A stretch of DNA of 10,631 nt. It comes from a virus (taxonomy: Duplodnaviria; Heunggongvirae; Uroviricota; Caudoviricetes). Shown piece by piece: positions 3,015-10,062 of this stretch (within the stretch, counting starts at the first letter, position 1; every line of letters starts with the position of its first letter). A model generated the notes under the pieces. It worked only from the letters and a program-made list of their open reading frames with translations. It searched no databases and was not told the DNA's origin. The DNA is taken from IMG/VR virus record IMGVR_UViG_2703718802_000006, one strand, 5' to 3'. The translations under genes and the position numbers were made by a program.

Positions 3015-4229
3015 ATGAAATACAAGCCGGATCAATACATCATCTCTGATAGTTACGGAGTTTATTACGTCAGGATCTCAATTCCTATATGGCTTCGTAA
3101 TGCATTTGGTGGAAGAAAAACTCTCGTCCGTAGTCTGAACACTTCCGATCTTCGTGTGGCACGTAGGAAGCGTGATGTTATAGCAGACGAGTTTCACCAC
3201 ATCAGGCAAATTGCAGAGCCACCAAAACCGGACAGCCTGCAGGACACAATCAGCTATCTAAAGAGCGTTGCTAAGTACGCAAAAGCTGCCCCGAAAGCAT
3301 CAGCGCCAATTATCTCCCAATGCCCCTCTCTGAATAAGATGTTGGAGATTTACCTCACGCATAACGCTGATCGCCTGAAAATTGGAACATTAAGCAAGAC
3401 CAGGAAAGCCGTAGAACTGTTTCTGAATTACCTGCGAAAGAAGGATGTGGAACTAAACGATATCAACCGTACCACCGTTACAGGCTGGCTTGATCATCTC
3501 CGAGAAACAAAGGCAGTCCAAACAGTGGCTAACTATCTTTCTGCAATGGCAAACATTCTCGATCTTGCCTCTTCCCGATACCAGGACGCCCCACAGCTGG
3601 AAAGTAACGTATTCAGAGGGCATAAACTCAACACAGCGCAGAGCCGCCAGAGTTACGAGGCATTCACGGACGAAGAAATTACGAAGCTCATTAGCACGTT
3701 TAACAAGTTAGGAGAGGACGAATTAAGGGATTTAAGCGCCATAGCCGCTTATAGCGGAATGCGCATCAATGAAATAGCCAGTTTGAAATCTGACAATATC
3801 CGTGAAGTTGAGGGGGTGTTATGTTTCGATGTATTGGAAGGAAAGACAGCTAACGCTTCCAGGCTAATCCCATGCCATAGTGCGATTAAAACAATGGTCC
3901 TGGAACGCTGCCAGAAGCCGCACAACGGCTTTTTATTTTACCGTGCAAGTGTGACCAAGAGAGAGGACGGCAAGCGCTCCTCATGGCACGTAAACCGCTT
4001 TGGACGGCTTAAACGCGATATTCTCCCAGGGCAAGAAAACAAGGTGTTTCACTCGTACCGCCATGCCGTGATCAGTAAGCTAAACGCCGCCGGAGTGGAT
4101 GAATCTCGTATTGCCTTGCTCGCGGGCCACTCATTTGGAGAAACTGAATCTTTCAAGACGTATTCGAAATCCGTTCCTGAGCGAATAGTGAAGGAACTAA
4201 AAGAATATATCGAATTAATCAAATATTAA
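3015..4229 (+). CDS. int: Tyrosine recombinase / phage-type integrase, 404 aa
   Basis: GGTGG Shine-Dalgarno before the ATG at 3015. The C-terminal catalytic pattern is visible: AYSGMRINEI (Arg), HSYRHAV (His-x-x-Arg), LLAGHS (His) and KTYSK (Tyr nucleophile). It lies immediately next to the att fragment. Confidence 0.9.
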   Translation: MKYKPDQYIISDSYGVYYVRISIPIWLRNAFGGRKTLVRSLNTSDLRVARRKRDVIADEFHHIRQIAEPPKPDSLQDTISYLKSVAKYAKAAPKASAPIISQCPSLNKMLEIYLTHNADRLKIGTLSKTRKAVELFLNYLRKKDVELNDINRTTVTGWLDHLRETKAVQTVANYLSAMANILDLASSRYQDAPQLESNVFRGHKLNTAQSRQSYEAFTDEEITKLISTFNKLGEDELRDLSAIAAYSGMRINEIASLKSDNIREVEGVLCFDVLEGKTANASRLIPCHSAIKTMVLERCQKPHNGFLFYRASVTKREDGKRSSWHVNRFGRLKRDILPGQENKVFHSYRHAVISKLNAAGVDESRIALLAGHSFGETESFKTYSKSVPERIVKELKEYIELIKY

Positions 4230-4881: not shown

Positions 4882-6753
4882 TCACCCCCCTGTGCTGCTC
4901 TGACCGCTCAAGGCTGACAAGGTGAGCGACTGTGTAAAACTGGCTTGTGAGGCTCTCGCCTGGAAATCAATGTAATCGCTCAGCCTTGAGCTATCGCTGG
5001 CGATAGTTAGCGGAACAGACGCTTCAAGATTGAGATTGAATACAGGTGCAAGATTGTACGCTGGCGCACTATTGGTGCTGGTTAGGGATGATATAGCAGA
5101 ATCACGAAGCGCTCCCCCTTTCAGAGAATCACCATTCAGGCCGTATTGTTCTACCGCTGTCCCTGTAGGCTGATCATCTATCCCTAACCAACCTTTAACG
5201 GCATGACCTACACTACGGCTGTCCCACCCTGTCTTGTCCTGCACCCAATCGGCAGCACTGTTGGCACTTCCTGTAACAGCACCATCATACAAACTCTGTG
5301 CCGCTGGCTTATCGCTACCAGTGAACCATTGAGGGAAACGTTCTTTCAGCCCTGCATTGATATCACTCACAACACTGGAAATCTCACCCACAAACCCAGT
5401 GATTTCTTTCGAGAGATTGCCTAAGCCCTCTCCAAGCATTCCCGCCGCTTCGGTGATAATTTTGGTTTTCCTTACCAGATCGTCGCCCCCATCGGCAAAG
5501 CCTTTCATCCAGCCTGTAAACAACTGATTGTCTATTCCATTCATCAGATTACCCATAGCAACACTCAAATCGCCATACTCATAAACCTGCTTGATCATTT
5601 CGTCGTTCAGCGTCTGACCGGACTCAATGAGAGTTCTTAGCGTCTTGTTATACTCTGCACCGTTGTTCATGAACATATCGGTGTAGTGCATCAGGTCATC
5701 ACCTAAACTCTCAATCAGCGTACCAATCTGAGCCTGTGACATACCACGGCGTTGCCCTTCATTCACCGTAGCTTGAACAAAATCGAGTGGTGAATCTTGG
5801 AACTTGGAAATCTGATCCTTACTCCATCCAAATTTGTTCATTATCGACGTAATGCCACCATCCCCACCCTTCCATTCGCCATTCTTCATTTGAGCATCGT
5901 TAACAGTCATGGCGAGGCGTTCACGCACATCTTTCATGTTATCGACGGCTTTTGAGGTATTAGCTGAATCAACACCGTGTTGCTGTCCCCAGGCCACCAT
6001 CGTTTTTATGGCGTTTGGGTTGGTTTTCACACGTTCACTCATTCTCACCAGTTCGAGGTTATCATTCCCTTTGTCAATAATTCGCTGCCCCACTCCGAGG
6101 GAGCCAGCCGTTAACGCAAGGCTTCCTAATACCCCACCACCGACGATAGGAGCATTCCCGCCCTTCTGAGCCTTTAGCTTAGTGGCTGCTGCGGCATACT
6201 GGGTACGCTGTGCCTGTGTCACTTTGGCTTGCTGTGCGGCTTCTCTGCGTAACAGGGTTACACGCTCACGAATAGATGCGTTCATACGGGCACTGGTCAG
6301 ATTGCCTTTGGCAAATTCCTCTGTTTGCTGACGTATGAAACGTAACGCTTCATATTGAGATTTAAGATCAAGTCCGTATTTACCTTTAATTCCTGACACT
6401 TGTAGCCCTGCATGGCGAAGTTTAAGCTCGGCTGTCTCTTGGTGCTTCTGTAGCTGCTGCTTCGCTTTCAGATTGGCCTTTTCATCCCTGGCTTTCTGCT
6501 TCTCTGCCGCACGTTGGGCTTTCATTTCCTTCGTATCACGAGGTTTATCATTAAAACGTGCATCATCGGCTTGTTGACGAGCTTTCTGTCTGCGCTGCTT
6601 CTGAGCCTGGAAGCGAATCTTGGGATCGGCTATTTTCTGGAAGTGCTTTTGAAGGTTATCCGCTGCGGCTTTAGCCAGAGCAATGCTCTGCTTATCCACC
6701 ACGAATGTAACCGTATTGCGGATCTGACTGACCGAAATATCAAGCATCGCCAC
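4882..6753 (-). CDS. Large structural protein, tape-measure-like, 623 aa (Lys/Gln/Ala-rich coiled-coil N-terminus plus a glycine-rich hydrophobic segment)
   Basis: Long uninterrupted ORF. Residues ~50-190 are charged heptad-like repeats (KQRRQKARQQADD…EKQKARDEKANLKAKQQLQKHQE). APIVGGGVLGSLALTAGSLGVG is a Gly-zipper hydrophobic stretch, as seen in tape measure proteins. The start is ambiguous: GTG at 6753 or ATG at 6747. It overlaps the upstream 65-aa gene by 14 nt. Confidence 0.8.
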   Translation of the reverse strand: MAMLDISVSQIRNTVTFVVDKQSIALAKAAADNLQKHFQKIADPKIRFQAQKQRRQKARQQADDARFNDKPRDTKEMKAQRAAEKQKARDEKANLKAKQQLQKHQETAELKLRHAGLQVSGIKGKYGLDLKSQYEALRFIRQQTEEFAKGNLTSARMNASIRERVTLLRREAAQQAKVTQAQRTQYAAAATKLKAQKGGNAPIVGGGVLGSLALTAGSLGVGQRIIDKGNDNLELVRMSERVKTNPNAIKTMVAWGQQHGVDSANTSKAVDNMKDVRERLAMTVNDAQMKNGEWKGGDGGITSIMNKFGWSKDQISKFQDSPLDFVQATVNEGQRRGMSQAQIGTLIESLGDDLMHYTDMFMNNGAEYNKTLRTLIESGQTLNDEMIKQVYEYGDLSVAMGNLMNGIDNQLFTGWMKGFADGGDDLVRKTKIITEAAGMLGEGLGNLSKEITGFVGEISSVVSDINAGLKERFPQWFTGSDKPAAQSLYDGAVTGSANSAADWVQDKTGWDSRSVGHAVKGWLGIDDQPTGTAVEQYGLNGDSLKGGALRDSAISSLTSTNSAPAYNLAPVFNLNLEASVPLTIASDSSRLSDYIDFQARASQASFTQSLTLSALSGQSSTGG

Positions 6754-6962: not shown

Positions 6963-7046
6963 AAAAAAGGGCGGGAACACTGGGGAGATGTTCCCAACGT
7001 TCACACGCCCTATTCAAAAGCCTGATTATTGCCTGCGGGTCAGGCT
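6963..7046 (-). terminator. Two tandem intrinsic-terminator-like hairpins downstream of the capsid gene
   Basis: Minus strand T1: AGCCUGA (7046-7040) pairs with UCAGGCU (7025-7019), followed by UUUG. Minus strand T2: GGGAACA-ucuccccag-UGUUCCC (6995-6973), closed by GGGC/GCCC (7010-7007 with 6972-6969) and followed by UUUUUUAU (6968-6961). Confidence 0.55.
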
Positions 7047-7058
7047 CCCGCTTGCTCA

Positions 7059-8090
7059 TTAAGCAGTGATGGTGATCTTCACTTGCATACCTAACGCATG
7101 GTTCACTGGTAATGCGCTGTTTTCGTGCATAACGTGGTAAGCATCGCCGCGCTCGCTCAGGTAGCCCCAAGAGTAGTATTCAGCAGGTGCAGCATCGATC
7201 AGCGCGAAGTTGCCAGAGGCAGCGCCGTAGATGTTCTGATAAGCATTTGTGCCTTTACTGAATACCGGAACCGCCACCATGTCAGCATCATCTGGCATCT
7301 GTGCAAGGATCAGCGGATCTGTCACTTTAACAATGTCGATAGGCGCACCAGGTAGGCTAAACGTACTAACACCAGGGAGAAGCTCGTGACGCTGGTAGAA
7401 TAGGTTACGGTCGTCATATGGCGCTACATACTGGAACGCCTTAGACATACTGTCAGAGAAGCGAATCTGGCTAAATGCAGCAGGTTTAGCGAATACGATC
7501 ACTCGTTCAATCTGTCCAGCCAATCCACCTGCGGCAGCCTGAACTTTGTCTAAGATGGCATCAAAATCCTGTGCCGCTGTCGCTGTGCTCACGCTGGCTG
7601 TCATTGGCACCACACCGAACAGTTCAGCATAAGAGATCAGTAGGTCATCAGTTGCAGGCGTATAAACTTCACCTTTGAACAGAGCACGGGCCAGGTAGGA
7701 TTCACGGGTACGAAGATAGGCAATCTTATGTTTCCCTGTGTACTCGGTGTACAGGTCGGTAACGGTTTGCTCGTAGTCCGTGCCTTGCACCCTTTTCCCT
7801 TGTACGTCTACTGGTTTGAAGGTGTCTTCCCTCGCAAACCAAGGGATCTCCACCAAATATTCTTTACCATTCTGACGCGCGGTAGTGTCGTGGCTTGATG
7901 AATAACGACTCTGCGGGGTGTTAAACAGGCTGTAGTTATCATCCAGAAGCTGTGTCACCACCACTTTCGGATTCTGAACACCTACCCCGTCGAAGAGGTC
8001 GAGAGCATTCATAAGATAGTTACGTTCCGGCAGAGCCTGGAAGATTGGCGCTAAATCGACCATCTCACGCCCAATTGCGATTTTACTCAT
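7059..8090 (-). CDS. Major capsid protein, lambda gpE-like family, 343 aa
   Basis: AAGGAAG Shine-Dalgarno before the ATG at 8090. The size is typical of E-family capsid proteins. The central segment ESYLARALFKGEVYTP resembles the lambda E segment EMQAVSAVLKGKYTM. It sits directly after a small decoration-like gene, as in the lambda D-E order. Family assignment is by eye. Confidence 0.75.
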   Translation of the reverse strand: MSKIAIGREMVDLAPIFQALPERNYLMNALDLFDGVGVQNPKVVVTQLLDDNYSLFNTPQSRYSSSHDTTARQNGKEYLVEIPWFAREDTFKPVDVQGKRVQGTDYEQTVTDLYTEYTGKHKIAYLRTRESYLARALFKGEVYTPATDDLLISYAELFGVVPMTASVSTATAAQDFDAILDKVQAAAGGLAGQIERVIVFAKPAAFSQIRFSDSMSKAFQYVAPYDDRNLFYQRHELLPGVSTFSLPGAPIDIVKVTDPLILAQMPDDADMVAVPVFSKGTNAYQNIYGAASGNFALIDAAPAEYYSWGYLSERGDAYHVMHENSALPVNHALGMQVKITITA

Positions 8091-8106: not shown

Positions 8107-8466
8107 TTAAGAGGTGAAGAATGGACGGCATACGAACCCTTTGGATTCGAGCGTGGTGATAGCTGCGGCGTGATTAGCTGCGTGCAGGTTGTCGGCTTTC
8201 AGTGCTACGAAGCTGCCAACATTAGGCGCACGTAGGACATTCACGGTTTTACCGTCGCCAGCACTCACGAAATCACTTACCACCACAAAGGCATCATCGC
8301 CGGAGGTGTATAGAGCGCCATCAGCGCCGATAACATCGCCGCATTCAATATCTGCTGGCAGGTCGAAAACACGGCCTTCTACGACTGCAAAAGAATCAGT
8401 GGCGTAGCTCACTACGTCAGTGAAACTCTTACGAATTGGGAAAAGTTCGGTTAGGTCTACAATCAT
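8107..8466 (-). CDS. Head decoration protein-like (lambda gpD-type position and size), 119 aa
   Basis: ATGA start/stop overlap with the upstream 71-aa gene. It is a small Gly/Ala/Val/Asp-rich beta-type protein immediately upstream of the capsid gene. Function is inferred mainly from synteny and composition. Confidence 0.6.
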   Translation of the reverse strand: MIVDLTELFPIRKSFTDVVSYATDSFAVVEGRVFDLPADIECGDVIGADGALYTSGDDAFVVVSDFVSAGDGKTVNVLRAPNVGSFVALKADNLHAANHAAAITTLESKGFVCRPFFTS

Positions 8467-8678
8467 TGTTGTTTGATTTCCTTGGATTTGATTGCGATCC
8501 GTTCCTGCATACTAAGTTGAGGTGTGTCCTCAGAAGGGAAATACTGGTCTACAGCTTTTTCTATTTCTTCAACGGTACATCCTGCCATTTCAGCCACTTT
8601 AGCTATTAACTCAGGATTAACTTGAATCACTTCGGATTTGTATTTTAGGATTCGGTCGCGATTGTTTATTAAGAACAT
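8463..8678 (-). CDS. Hypothetical 71-aa acidic helical protein, first gene of the capsid cluster
   Basis: AAGGAA Shine-Dalgarno 8 nt before the ATG at 8678. It is coupled to the next gene by an ATGA overlap. It occupies the position of a scaffold-type gene, but I see no recognisable similarity. Confidence 0.6.
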   Translation of the reverse strand: MFLINNRDRILKYKSEVIQVNPELIAKVAEMAGCTVEEIEKAVDQYFPSEDTPQLSMQERIAIKSKEIKQQ

Positions 8679-8749
8679 TGTGTTGTTCCTTCGCGTTATA
8701 ACTGCGTTTATCCTTCCATTAATAACGGAAGTGTTACATGCAGATTGTT

Positions 8750-8771
8750 AAAAAGGGGCGATTAAGCCCCT
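8750..8771 (-). terminator. Rho-independent terminator ending the leader/ncRNA transcript
   Basis: Minus strand: A-GGGGC-uuaauc-GCCCC-U followed by UUUUU (8754-8750). This is a canonical GC stem plus U tract, 72 nt upstream of the 71-aa gene start. Confidence 0.7.
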
Positions 8772-9296
8772 GGAGAATATGCCCTTGTTAGAAAGCATTC
8801 TGTTAAAATCATTTTCGTTTCGGAGGATTATGATGTTAAAGAAAGGTTTCTTGAAAAAATGAAGGGCGCAACTGTTACGAATAACAGAAGTAGGATCGCC
8901 CGTCATTGCTCCCACTTCAAAACAGAAGCCCTTCTGTCATGGCGAGAAGTGGGAATGGAATTTCTTATCACCCTGGAATAGTAATAAGAGATTGCCAGCC
9001 TGAACGTAACTACCACTGACGGCGTTTATTCAGTCTGACTGCTTATAATCCTAACGGGGTTATAAGGTTTAGAGCACGGAATATGCTCTCTGAAAGAGAA
9101 TGTGCGCGGTGATTGTTCGTTACCACCCGACACAAGTGGGAACGCCCGCGCCACCCTTTGGAACTAAACACAACAAAGGAAAACAACCAGCTTTCAGAGA
9201 GGATATTCAATGGGAGAGAGCGCCGCCTATGGGAAACGGCATTCTCAGGGAGTGCGTATTGTTATACGAGGGTGGAGTGATTCTAATACCTACCCT
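8750..9296 (-). ncRNA. Candidate ~550-nt structured non-coding transcript (or long late-operon leader), family unknown
   Basis: Bounded by a near-consensus promoter and a clean terminator on the same strand. There is no convincing ORF on either strand. It contains many hairpins: 9255-9268, 9216-9246, 9104-9151, 9071-9089, 9042-9066, 8910-8954 (nested) and 8872-8887. The last has a UUCG loop only in the minus-strand sense. Confidence 0.5.
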
Positions 9297-9303
9297 ATAA
9301 CTT

Positions 9304-9332
9304 ATTATGACACAAATAGCACAATATGTCAA
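9304..9332 (-). promoter_or_regulatory. Near-consensus sigma70 promoter
   Basis: Minus strand: TTGACA (9332-9327), 17-nt spacer, CATAAT (9309-9304). The predicted start is near A9296/G9295. Confidence 0.65.
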
Positions 9333-9347
9333 GATATTTCGTAATAT

Positions 9348-9686
9348 TTATGTTATAGCGCATTCTTCCGCGATCTGGATGGCAAGCTCTCCGAGTTCAA
9401 CGGTGATGTGTTCCATAGCGAGGGCAAGCTCCTCCATATCATTGGCAATGCGCCACGCCTGATCCACGGTGACGGTATCCCCGTTCATCTGCACCAGGTG
9501 CTCTACAGCAGCATTCCAGTGTTCAAGGGCGGTGATTGCCTGTTCAGTGTATTGCAGCGCTTCCAGGAGCGCGGAGGGCGTTCTCTCACACCACGCCCTA
9601 TTAACAAGCCACAGGGCTGGTAGATGCCAAATATCGTGGAAATAGTTAATTAGGGTGTTCATGGTGTCCATAGTTTTATTATTCAT
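9348..9686 (-). CDS. Hypothetical 112-aa helical protein
   Basis: I chose the ATG at 9686 because it overlaps the stop of the upstream 127-aa gene (AACAATGAATAA). The 161-aa long form would overlap that gene by 155 nt. The sequence is rich in Ala/Glu/Leu helices. The stop is 15 nt upstream of the -35 element of the RNA promoter. Confidence 0.6.
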   Translation of the reverse strand: MNNKTMDTMNTLINYFHDIWHLPALWLVNRAWCERTPSALLEALQYTEQAITALEHWNAAVEHLVQMNGDTVTVDQAWRIANDMEELALAMEHITVELGELAIQIAEECAIT

Positions 9687-10062
9687 TGTTGTTTTCCTTG
9701 TCGTCAAAGAGAATATCAAAATCTTGTATGTGGTGAGATAAGCCGTTAGTTTGGGAATACCCCACCCAGTCAACATAGTTTTCTGCGTATAGCTGCCACT
9801 TCTTAAGATTCGATGAATCAACACGGTATTCACGGCGGCGGCGTGGTTTATAGAAGACGTTATCCGAAGATGCTAAAACATCCTGCAATAGTTCAAACTC
9901 TGCCCCTACGGGCACCGTTGCAGGGTATTCTATTATTTCGGTGATCCATTCTCCTGGAATAGACTCTCGTGCGAGGTCTTGTAGAGAAGAGGTGTATTTA
10001 CGTTTGCTGGCGCGAGTGGCTTTTTCGATTCTAACAATGTTACTTCGTTCTTTTCGTCCCAT
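9679..10062 (-). CDS. Hypothetical 127-aa protein (basic N-terminus, acidic C-terminus)
   Basis: GAGGAA Shine-Dalgarno 3-5 nt before the ATG at 10062. It is translationally coupled to the downstream gene. I recognise no motif. Confidence 0.65.
   Translation of the reverse strand: MGRKERSNIVRIEKATRASKRKYTSSLQDLARESIPGEWITEIIEYPATVPVGAEFELLQDVLASSDNVFYKPRRRREYRVDSSNLKKWQLYAENYVDWVGYSQTNGLSHHIQDFDILFDDKENNNE

Follow-up and report, generated by a model that had tools for sequence, protein, structure and literature searches.

The stretch of DNA analyzed here (the window; 10,631 nucleotides (nt), IMG/VR virus record IMGVR_UViG_2703718802_000006) contains an integrated, capsid-encoding element of Enterobacterales, between whose early genes and capsid module lies an unannotated gap of 670 nt (8679-9347). 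On the early side the gap adjoins two co-directional genes, which encode proteins of 127 amino acids (aa; 9679-10062) and 112 aa (9348-9686). On the other side it is followed by the first gene of the capsid cluster, encoding a 71-aa protein (8463-8678, ATG at 8678-8676), by a gene for a 119-aa protein (8107-8466) and by the gene for a major capsid protein of the lambda gpE type (7059-8090; Pfam Phage_cap_E, E = 1e-13; phrog_29 major head protein). All of these genes, and all features of the promoter-RNA-terminator unit that we describe in the gap, are on the minus strand. The original prediction for this locus had seen in it the wiring of a lambdoid late operon, with a constitutive promoter, a long leader and a terminator, and had suggested that the capsid genes may be silent until a helper phage supplies a Q-type or other processive antiterminator.

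For comparison, we gathered about 125 related loci via the capsid protein. In 81 of them the genes on both sides of the gap are present, and the corresponding gap was taken from these, which yielded 68 different gap sequences. These form a long class of 560-751 nt and a short class of 330-352 nt, with one sequence of intermediate length. Structure and covariation were analyzed on a MAFFT alignment of 36 long leaders, and boxA-like motifs were counted in 43 long leaders.

The gap opens with a σ70 promoter (9332-9304), consisting of the −35 element TTGACA (9332-9327), a 17-nt spacer, TG at 9312-9311 and the −10 element CATAAT (9309-9304). It scores 11/12 plus the TG and is the top promoter-like site in the window, which bears out the near-consensus promoter originally claimed. 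A promoter of at least 10/12, located 15-37 nt past the stop codon of the upstream gene, is present in 60 of the 68 unique gaps, and the promoters of the relatives are assembled from at least eight unrelated spacer/−10 cassettes.

From a start placed by promoter geometry at about 9298-9296, the transcript is predicted to run to the T-tract of a terminator, forming a structured non-coding RNA of about 549 nt (8750-9298). The minimum free energy (MFE) of the 549-nt leader of the window has a z-score of −5.45, and leaders too diverged to be aligned gave z-scores of −5.85, −7.26 and −2.96. A consensus of the per-sequence folds of the 36 long leaders comprises 158 pairs in 27 helices; 81.7% of the cells are paired, compared with 43-47% when the partners are slid against each other. 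In 52 pairs both sides have changed, and the observed covariation was reached by none of 500 shuffles. Covariation was also seen on a curated alignment of the central domain and on a covariance-model alignment that included non-seed sequences. RNAalifold, applied to the raw 965-column MAFFT alignment, returned only 22 pairs, with indel-rich modules misaligned, and its result was replaced by the consensus of per-sequence MFE folds, the curated sub-alignments and the covariance model.

Folding energy failed to assign the RNA to a strand, as the opposite strand folds about equally well (z = −6.6). The compensatory changes do separate the two: G.U pairs outnumber A.C combinations by 108 to 18 cells, which places the RNA on the strand of the capsid genes, and the strands differ in the fraction of paired cells (92% versus 80%). 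A cmscan of the whole window against Rfam 15 (E ≤ 1) had no match in 8679-9332, searches for tRNA, tmRNA and tandem repeats found none, and the leader contains no conserved open reading frame. A coding role of the conserved GCAATGACGGGCG, which has an ATG, was considered and rejected, as other variants stop early in this frame and about a quarter of them have AAG instead of the ATG.

The RNA would begin with a hairpin (9269-9296) whose AGGGU/ACCCU stem covaries between GGGU/ACCC and GGAA/UUCC (helix 1). Its loop is nearly invariant in relatives of the long class as AGUAUUCGAAUCAC and holds the self-complementary UUCGAA, for which the window has UUAGAA. The central domain (9078-9212) is closed by a long-range helix, GAAUAU..CUCUCUGAAAG / CUUUCAGAGAG..AUAUUC, inside which lie a loop rich in U, the helix GCGCGG/CCGCGC and a hairpin that varies. 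This domain is 92-93.3% paired and 12-18 of its 39 pairs have changed on both sides, for example CUG/CAG versus CGU/ACG and GCGCGG/CCGCGC versus GCACGG/CCGUGC. A covariance model of it (R1) matches the window with 113.5 bits (E 2e-24). It detects a single copy in every long-class locus, in each case on the strand of the capsid genes, and none in loci of the short class or in some 70 viral loci that are unrelated. A search of IMG/VR for the invariant CAACGCGAAGGAAC by exact 14-mers gave chance matches only; the loci concerned were afterwards used as negative controls of the covariance model. Conserved unpaired loops of the RNA include AGUAUUCGAAUCAC, AAUCAC and a CCUCC loop, and the AAUCAC motif recurs in the central domain (CAAUCACCGCGC).

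The last feature of the RNA is an intrinsic terminator (8771-8750), in which AGGGGC and GCCCCU enclose the 6-nt loop UUAAUC and are followed by a U-tract (TTTTT). The original prediction had called it strong; it is present at the position claimed, but with a folding energy (dG) of −9.3 kcal/mol it is moderate. A hairpin with a T-tract ending 52-81 nt before the ATG was found in 67 of the 68 unique gaps, compared with 5% of shuffles, and the final terminators of the relatives are built on at least six unrelated stems. Since unrelated promoter cassettes and unrelated terminator stems recur at the same positions, both features are conserved by function and not by descent alone.

Two further terminator-like structures precede the final one. 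A compound hairpin (8854-8901; GGGCG..CGCCC, then UUCAUUUUUU) lies about 100 nt ahead of it and has the stem CCCCCG/CGGGGG in other variants, and an internal hairpin (8911-8953; CCCACUUC..GAAGUGGG enclosing CAGAAGGGCUUCUG plus UUUU, 8936-8919) is conserved in some members of the family. A hairpin of 38-50 nt with a T-rich tract 159-193 nt before the ATG, a combination that is rare in shuffles, is present in most of the 43 long leaders. The terminators proposed further down the operon are also found, for instance the terminator-like hairpin after the capsid gene (6972-6996); a hairpin with a T-tract at this place is present in 35 of 92 unique relatives and has two unrelated stem types.

The original prediction had seen no decent σ70 promoter between the terminator and the first gene of the capsid cluster. 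We likewise found no promoter-like site from 8750 to the ATG at 8678 (about 71 nt) and no conserved −10 element in the 52-81 nt that follow the terminator in the family; the lone TATAAC of the window is CACAAC, ACCAAC, TGCAAC or TAAAAC elsewhere. The 5' untranslated region after the terminator contains a stem-loop (8702-8743), formed by CUGC (8743-8740) and GCAG (8705-8702) with an inner CUUCC/GGAAG. Its stem (helix 26) begins only about 7 nt past the T-tract, is 94.3% paired and covaries (pair 891:931 is CG 14, UA 13 and UG 3 times). Because a covarying RNA stem lies downstream of the terminator, functional transcripts probably cross the terminator, or else start at it. The stem-loop is followed by the block AACGCGAAGGAA (8697-8686), which includes the Shine-Dalgarno sequence and precedes the ATG of the 71-aa gene. 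Its flanks vary, and the block itself is essentially the same in all 36 leaders of the alignment (a single leader reads GAGGAAA for GAAGGAA), a conservation that exceeds the need of a Shine-Dalgarno sequence alone.

About 225 nt past the predicted start and upstream of all terminators, the leader carries a boxA-like motif, UGCUCUAAA (9076-9068), which matches the boxA of rrn operons in 7 of 9 positions. The reference sequences for boxA are UGCUCUUUA in rrn and CGCUCUUA in lambda (PMC2724277). At the aligned, apparently unpaired site, relatives have CGCUCUUUA, CGCUCUUUG or UGCUCUUUA, with CGCTCTTTA or TGCTCTTTA at this one position, and 18 of the 43 long leaders have a perfect GCTCTTTA there, compared with 2.4% of shuffles. 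The motif is directly followed by a hairpin (9067-9042) with the conserved tip CCGUUAGG, a candidate boxB analogue, whose stem covaries (helix 11; pair 455:471 is CG 14 and AU 13 times, pair 458:468 CG 14 and UA 9 times). The combination occurs once per element, and the hairpin is always paired with a boxA-like motif. Together the two look like a nut site. In leaders of the L018 type, the flank CGCUCUUUA-CUCAUUCAUUCC resembles the boxA and spacer of lambda nutR, cgcucuua-cacauucca (PMC2724277). With the nut sites of lambda and the rrn boxA (PMC2724277) the locus would share a boxA-like motif, which is perfect in relatives (CGCUCUUUA/UGCUCUUUA), a spacer containing AUU, a conserved hairpin, a position behind a strong promoter and ahead of several terminators, and a small basic protein encoded just upstream.

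The explanation that we favor, if only tentatively, is that the gap specifies a stable, structured non-coding RNA whose tandem terminators gate the capsid genes, with read-through of the Nus or N type nucleated on the RNA. The gap would thus hold one conserved transcription unit, placed between the early genes, for replication and regulation, and the capsid module of an Enterobacterales element of about 12 kb. The near-consensus σ70 promoter would drive a highly structured RNA of about 550 nt with the 5' hairpin at its start. Transcription would normally stop at one of the intrinsic terminators, two or three of which follow in tandem (the last at 8771-8750), and this terminated RNA would itself be a functional product. 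The 71-aa, 119-aa and capsid genes, which have no conserved promoter of their own, would be reached only by polymerases reading through the terminators. Polymerases arriving from the early genes would meet the same gate, because these genes are co-directional with the leader and no terminator intervenes. Read-through would most likely be a processive antitermination nucleated at the nut-like boxA and hairpin, which would recruit NusB/NusE and the remaining Nus factors and perhaps an arginine-rich protein as well. This could be a helper protein or the 127-aa protein of the element, encoded two genes upstream. The 127-aa protein has a conserved Arg/Lys-rich N-terminal helix (MGRKERSNIVRIEKATRASKRK) and is in this respect reminiscent of N proteins, although this is only a resemblance.

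Several observations weigh against this explanation. The final terminator has a stem of only 5-6 bp and a U5 tract, so that passive leakage could suffice, and the start site, the efficiency of termination and the read-through are all deduced from sequence. The boxA match was noticed post hoc and is imperfect in the window (7/9). No boxA-like motif is present in the short-class leaders (about 230 nt) or in the leader of relative L008, nor was one seen by eye in the leaders of L010 and L014, and these leaders still keep the promoter-RNA-terminator layout. In contrast to lambda, the putative nut site lies about 225 nt into a large structured RNA, and the tip of its hairpin is a GUUA tetraloop, unlike known boxB loops. 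The 127-aa protein shows no detectable similarity to N proteins or to any characterized family, and its N-terminus shows no clear covariation with the hairpin tip. Finally, boxA complexes of the rrn type are known mainly to counter Rho and not intrinsic terminators, so the motif may only protect a long untranslated RNA. A boxA also precedes CRISPR arrays, where Nus factors prevent premature Rho termination of a long untranslated transcript (PMC7665894). The early position of the boxA in such a transcript is common to both systems, but the product there is processed CRISPR RNA, whereas here it would be a structured RNA followed by intrinsic terminators and protein genes.

The RNA could alternatively be the product of a free-standing non-coding RNA gene, acting as an antisense or anti-Shine-Dalgarno regulator of the early genes of the element or of helper transcripts, or as a protein sponge. 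The capsid genes would then be expressed from a separate promoter that depends on an activator or a helper polymerase and is hidden from consensus scans. We consider this possible but, on balance, doubtful. The locus has the typical anatomy of a non-coding RNA gene, with strong covariation and conserved unpaired loops, and the invariant AACGCGAAGGAA ahead of the ATG also speaks for this reading. Parts of the leader are, moreover, complementary to the ribosome-binding sites of the two upstream genes. In the window, 12 nt of the U-rich internal loop (9187-9176, GUUGUUUUCCUU) are perfectly complementary to the ribosome-binding site of the 112-aa gene (9699-9688, AAGGAAAACAAC), and many relatives have a different leader stretch that is complementary to the 127-aa gene around its start (CAUUCAUUCC; short class UUAUUUUUCCUUU). 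The latter complementarity spans 9-13 nt and reaches at least 9 nt in 34 of 63 cases, with a mean of 8.5 compared with 6.8 in shuffles. When RNA duplexes were predicted between the leader and translation-initiation regions, only the 112-aa gene was significant (z = −3.2). These matches could reflect antisense feedback on the early genes or chance among pyrimidine-rich sequences; they are modest and lie at differing leader positions in different lineages. A hidden promoter is also difficult to accommodate, as no −10-like element is conserved after the terminator and the covarying stem so close to the T-tract leaves no room for a promoter downstream.

The original prediction had offered its late-operon reading as an alternative or complement to that of a free-standing RNA; it had missed that the leader is itself a conserved, structured RNA and that it carries a boxA/nut-like motif. 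A precedent suggests that the choice is not a real one. StxS of Stx phages is a short (about 74-nt), Hfq-dependent small RNA. It derives from the PR'-tR' transcript, is made in the lysogen and is functional (PMC7547250). 'Leader' and 'free-standing non-coding RNA' are therefore not alternatives, because StxS is a terminated late-promoter transcript and a functional RNA at once. The RNA described here differs from it in its length of about 550 nt and its multiple domains, and there is no homology between the two. A bolder extension of the favored explanation would see in the leader a large, structured non-coding RNA of a new class, one that is confined to an undescribed family of capsid-encoding, satellite-like elements and serves as their control hub. 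The lysogen would produce it all the time. It would carry its own nut-like site and switch from a stable RNA to the leader of the capsid mRNA when an RNA-binding protein encoded by the element or its helper engages it, coupling capsid production to lytic helper infection; through anti-Shine-Dalgarno pairing it might control early genes or helper transcripts as well. We regard this as speculative and unlikely.

A passive attenuator, in which no antiterminator takes part and partial terminators merely fix a high ratio of RNA to capsid mRNA, seems unlikely to us. Wiring of this kind is known from type III toxin-antitoxin loci and from the terminators that follow abundant phage structural genes. 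The moderate strength of the final terminator would suit it, as would the selection on the untranslated region behind the terminator, by which read-through RNA evidently matters. Any on/off control would then have to come from an operator at the promoter, and several promoter variants do have inverted repeats in their spacers (TAACA-4-TGTTA, CATAAC-6-GTTATG; relatives e.g. L023, L008 and L017) or, in some cases, just upstream of the promoter (AGTGAATA-2-TATTCACT), which resemble operators and could be such. These repeats also bear on the constitutive activity that the original prediction had assumed for the promoter. However, two or three tandem terminator-like structures are conserved, which is more than the setting of a ratio needs, the boxA-like motif is conserved as well, and constitutive capsid synthesis would presumably be costly in a lysogen. 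A GTTATTAAY core related to the promoter repeats also lies inside the post-terminator stem-loop (8726-8718 in the window).

The specific proposal of the original prediction was that the promoter is constitutive and PR'-like and that a Q-type antiterminator from a lambdoid helper, loaded at a σ70-dependent promoter-proximal pause, takes polymerase past the terminators. The general part of this proposal has held up: the family keeps a strong promoter and, behind it, a long leader that is not translated and ends in a terminator, with no recognizable σ70 promoter beyond. As in the lambdoid PR'-6S leader-tR' region, the promoter directly follows the last early gene, the transcript ends at an intrinsic terminator, the structural genes lie behind it and further terminators follow downstream, and the variable promoter-spacer cassettes would be expected if they held different factor-binding sites. 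The early −10-like hexamers on which the pause was based are present at TAGGGT (9297-9292), TATTAG (9288-9283) and TAGAAT (9285-9280), but they are not conserved. TATTAG/TAGAAT occurs in 1 of the 68 unique leaders, most relatives having TATTCG/TCGAAT. TAGGGT, at about +1 to +6 in the window, recurs in 29 of 68, and its conservation is explained by RNA structure or the start site, because its GGG pairs with the downstream CCC in the covarying 5' hairpin.

The comparison with phage PR'-tR' regions gave nothing in favor of Q either: when the promoter-leader region was compared by blastn (word size 11) with 50,697 phage genomes, it had no match at E ≤ 0.01. Neither the 112-aa nor the 127-aa protein belongs to a Pfam family, and searches of the PDB with their profiles found no relative and no Q. 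The 112-aa protein is predicted with confidence to be a three-helix bundle (pLDDT 87) that is not Q-like, the best match of its model in a Foldseek search of the PDB having an E-value of 0.4 and none being to Q; for the 127-aa protein, whose model is poor (pLDDT 56), the negative result for Q comes from sequence searches only. The leader further differs from lambdoid ones in its length of 230-650 nt and in the strong selection on its structure, for which a Q mechanism gives no reason over 550 nt. Nor is a lambdoid helper indicated, because the sole phage affinity of the element is to phAPEC8-like lytic myoviruses of about 150 kb. Taken together, nothing that we found links the layout to a helper Q protein, and we consider its involvement very improbable.

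We give hardly any credence to the idea that the 670-bp gap is a DNA-level element, such as a packaging site (cos or pac) or a replication origin with incidental RNA structure, for although its location upstream of head genes recalls lambda cos and its two strands fold equally well, the compensatory changes are strand-specific, the region lies between a promoter and a terminator of the same orientation, no phage cos or pac region is similar to it, and iterons of the origin type lie elsewhere in intact relatives (L002 12773-12854).

Two further systems bear comparison with the favored, gated RNA. The put RNAs of HK022 are two stem-loops of about 35 nt that make polymerase resistant to terminators without a phage protein. 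They are likewise cis-acting structured RNAs just downstream of a strong promoter, but constitutive antitermination would make the conserved terminators pointless here unless the promoter were repressed. In the immunity systems of P4 (PLE leader / CI RNA) and P1 (c4), a leader transcript gives rise to a regulatory RNA that controls premature termination or translation of its own operon. The RNA of our element is much larger, has no match to the Rfam C4 family and contains no repeats of the seqA/seqC type that we could find.

A promoter, a leader and a terminator acting as a gate are the classic device by which lambdoid phages time their late genes. As far as sequence comparison can tell, conservation across the family shows that the promoter-RNA-terminator layout is real and biologically meaningful. 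The same logic in small capsid-encoding integrative elements would show how their capsid genes stay off until needed. The leader belongs to the few large RNAs of bacteria that covary clearly and are absent from Rfam. If its nut-like site is functional, it would extend antitermination of the N/Nus type to a new class of mobile elements and to an RNA that is a stable product at the same time.

The window matches E. coli RM10410 with 100% identity. It begins with paoC/paoD and a LysR pseudogene (1-2800), and the element starts at 3015 and runs on through the rest of the window. Besides the genes already described, the element carries a tyrosine integrase (3015-4229, plus strand) and, on the minus strand, genes for a 92-aa protein, a 623-aa TolA/tape-measure-like protein (4882-6753) and a 65-aa protein. 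Just past the window, upstream of the 127-aa gene, RM10410 has an IS2 where intact relatives hold early genes, and the window copy is therefore truncated on the early side. An intact element, such as that of E. coli AR_0128, measures about 12-13 kb and spans from a tRNA gene to the integrase; intact relatives additionally have a small second recombinase, a non-coding stretch of about 1.5 kb with iterons and two winged-helix proteins.

The only recognizable structural proteins in the window are the capsid protein and the tape-measure-like protein, and the other genes of an intact relative have no Pfam match to structural proteins. No portal, terminase or tail genes were recognized in the element, which suggests that it is satellite-like, and the full head module of a cf-PICI (capsid, portal, protease, connectors, small terminase) is not recognizable in it either. 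Members of the family are rare and confined to Enterobacterales: we found the element in 14 of 5,426 complete E. coli genomes and its capsid protein in 52 clusters among 5.8 billion proteins, with identities within the family down to about 42%. We found no description of the element in the literature that we searched. Many family members are stand-alone assembly contigs of 10-14 kb, about the size of the element, and six contigs examined for circularity had no terminal overlaps.

The only phage-like DNA of the element is a stretch of about 400 nt in the 623-aa gene (window about 5587-6021), which is 66-69% identical to tape-measure genes of phAPEC8-like lytic myoviruses of about 150 kb (Phapecoctavirus, Justusliebigvirus, Klebsiella phi1_175008); the gene as a whole matches phrog_16051 (E = 1e-96). 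This likeness could point to the helper or hint at a function in tail interference. The Pantoea-type relative L014 has the Kiwa pair KwaA/KwaB (9469-11011) in place of the 620-aa tape-measure-like gene, and this position therefore behaves as an accessory or defense slot. In L012, an E. coli relative of the short class, the tape-measure-like gene is followed by a Dit-like protein.

Copies of the element in E. coli are decaying. In one strain, E. coli CFSAN051542 (NZ_CP020835.1, 3778563-3780006), the leader is interrupted by IS1B, and the window copy, with its neighboring IS2 (L001 11476-12704), is itself decayed, for which reason intact relatives such as that of E. coli AR_0128 are better experimental systems. 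In the intact relative L002, the unannotated stretch of about 1.5 kb (12016-13581) adjoins the small recombinase, which is of the tyrosine type (186-205 aa) in L002, L010 and L014 and of the serine resolvase type (179 aa) in L012. The stretch contains three 18-nt iterons (TACNCATCAAATTGATGT) at a spacing of 32 nt (12773-12854) and a perfect 14-nt inverted repeat (12740-12753 / 13117-13130); it is likely a replication origin and possibly an invertible segment.

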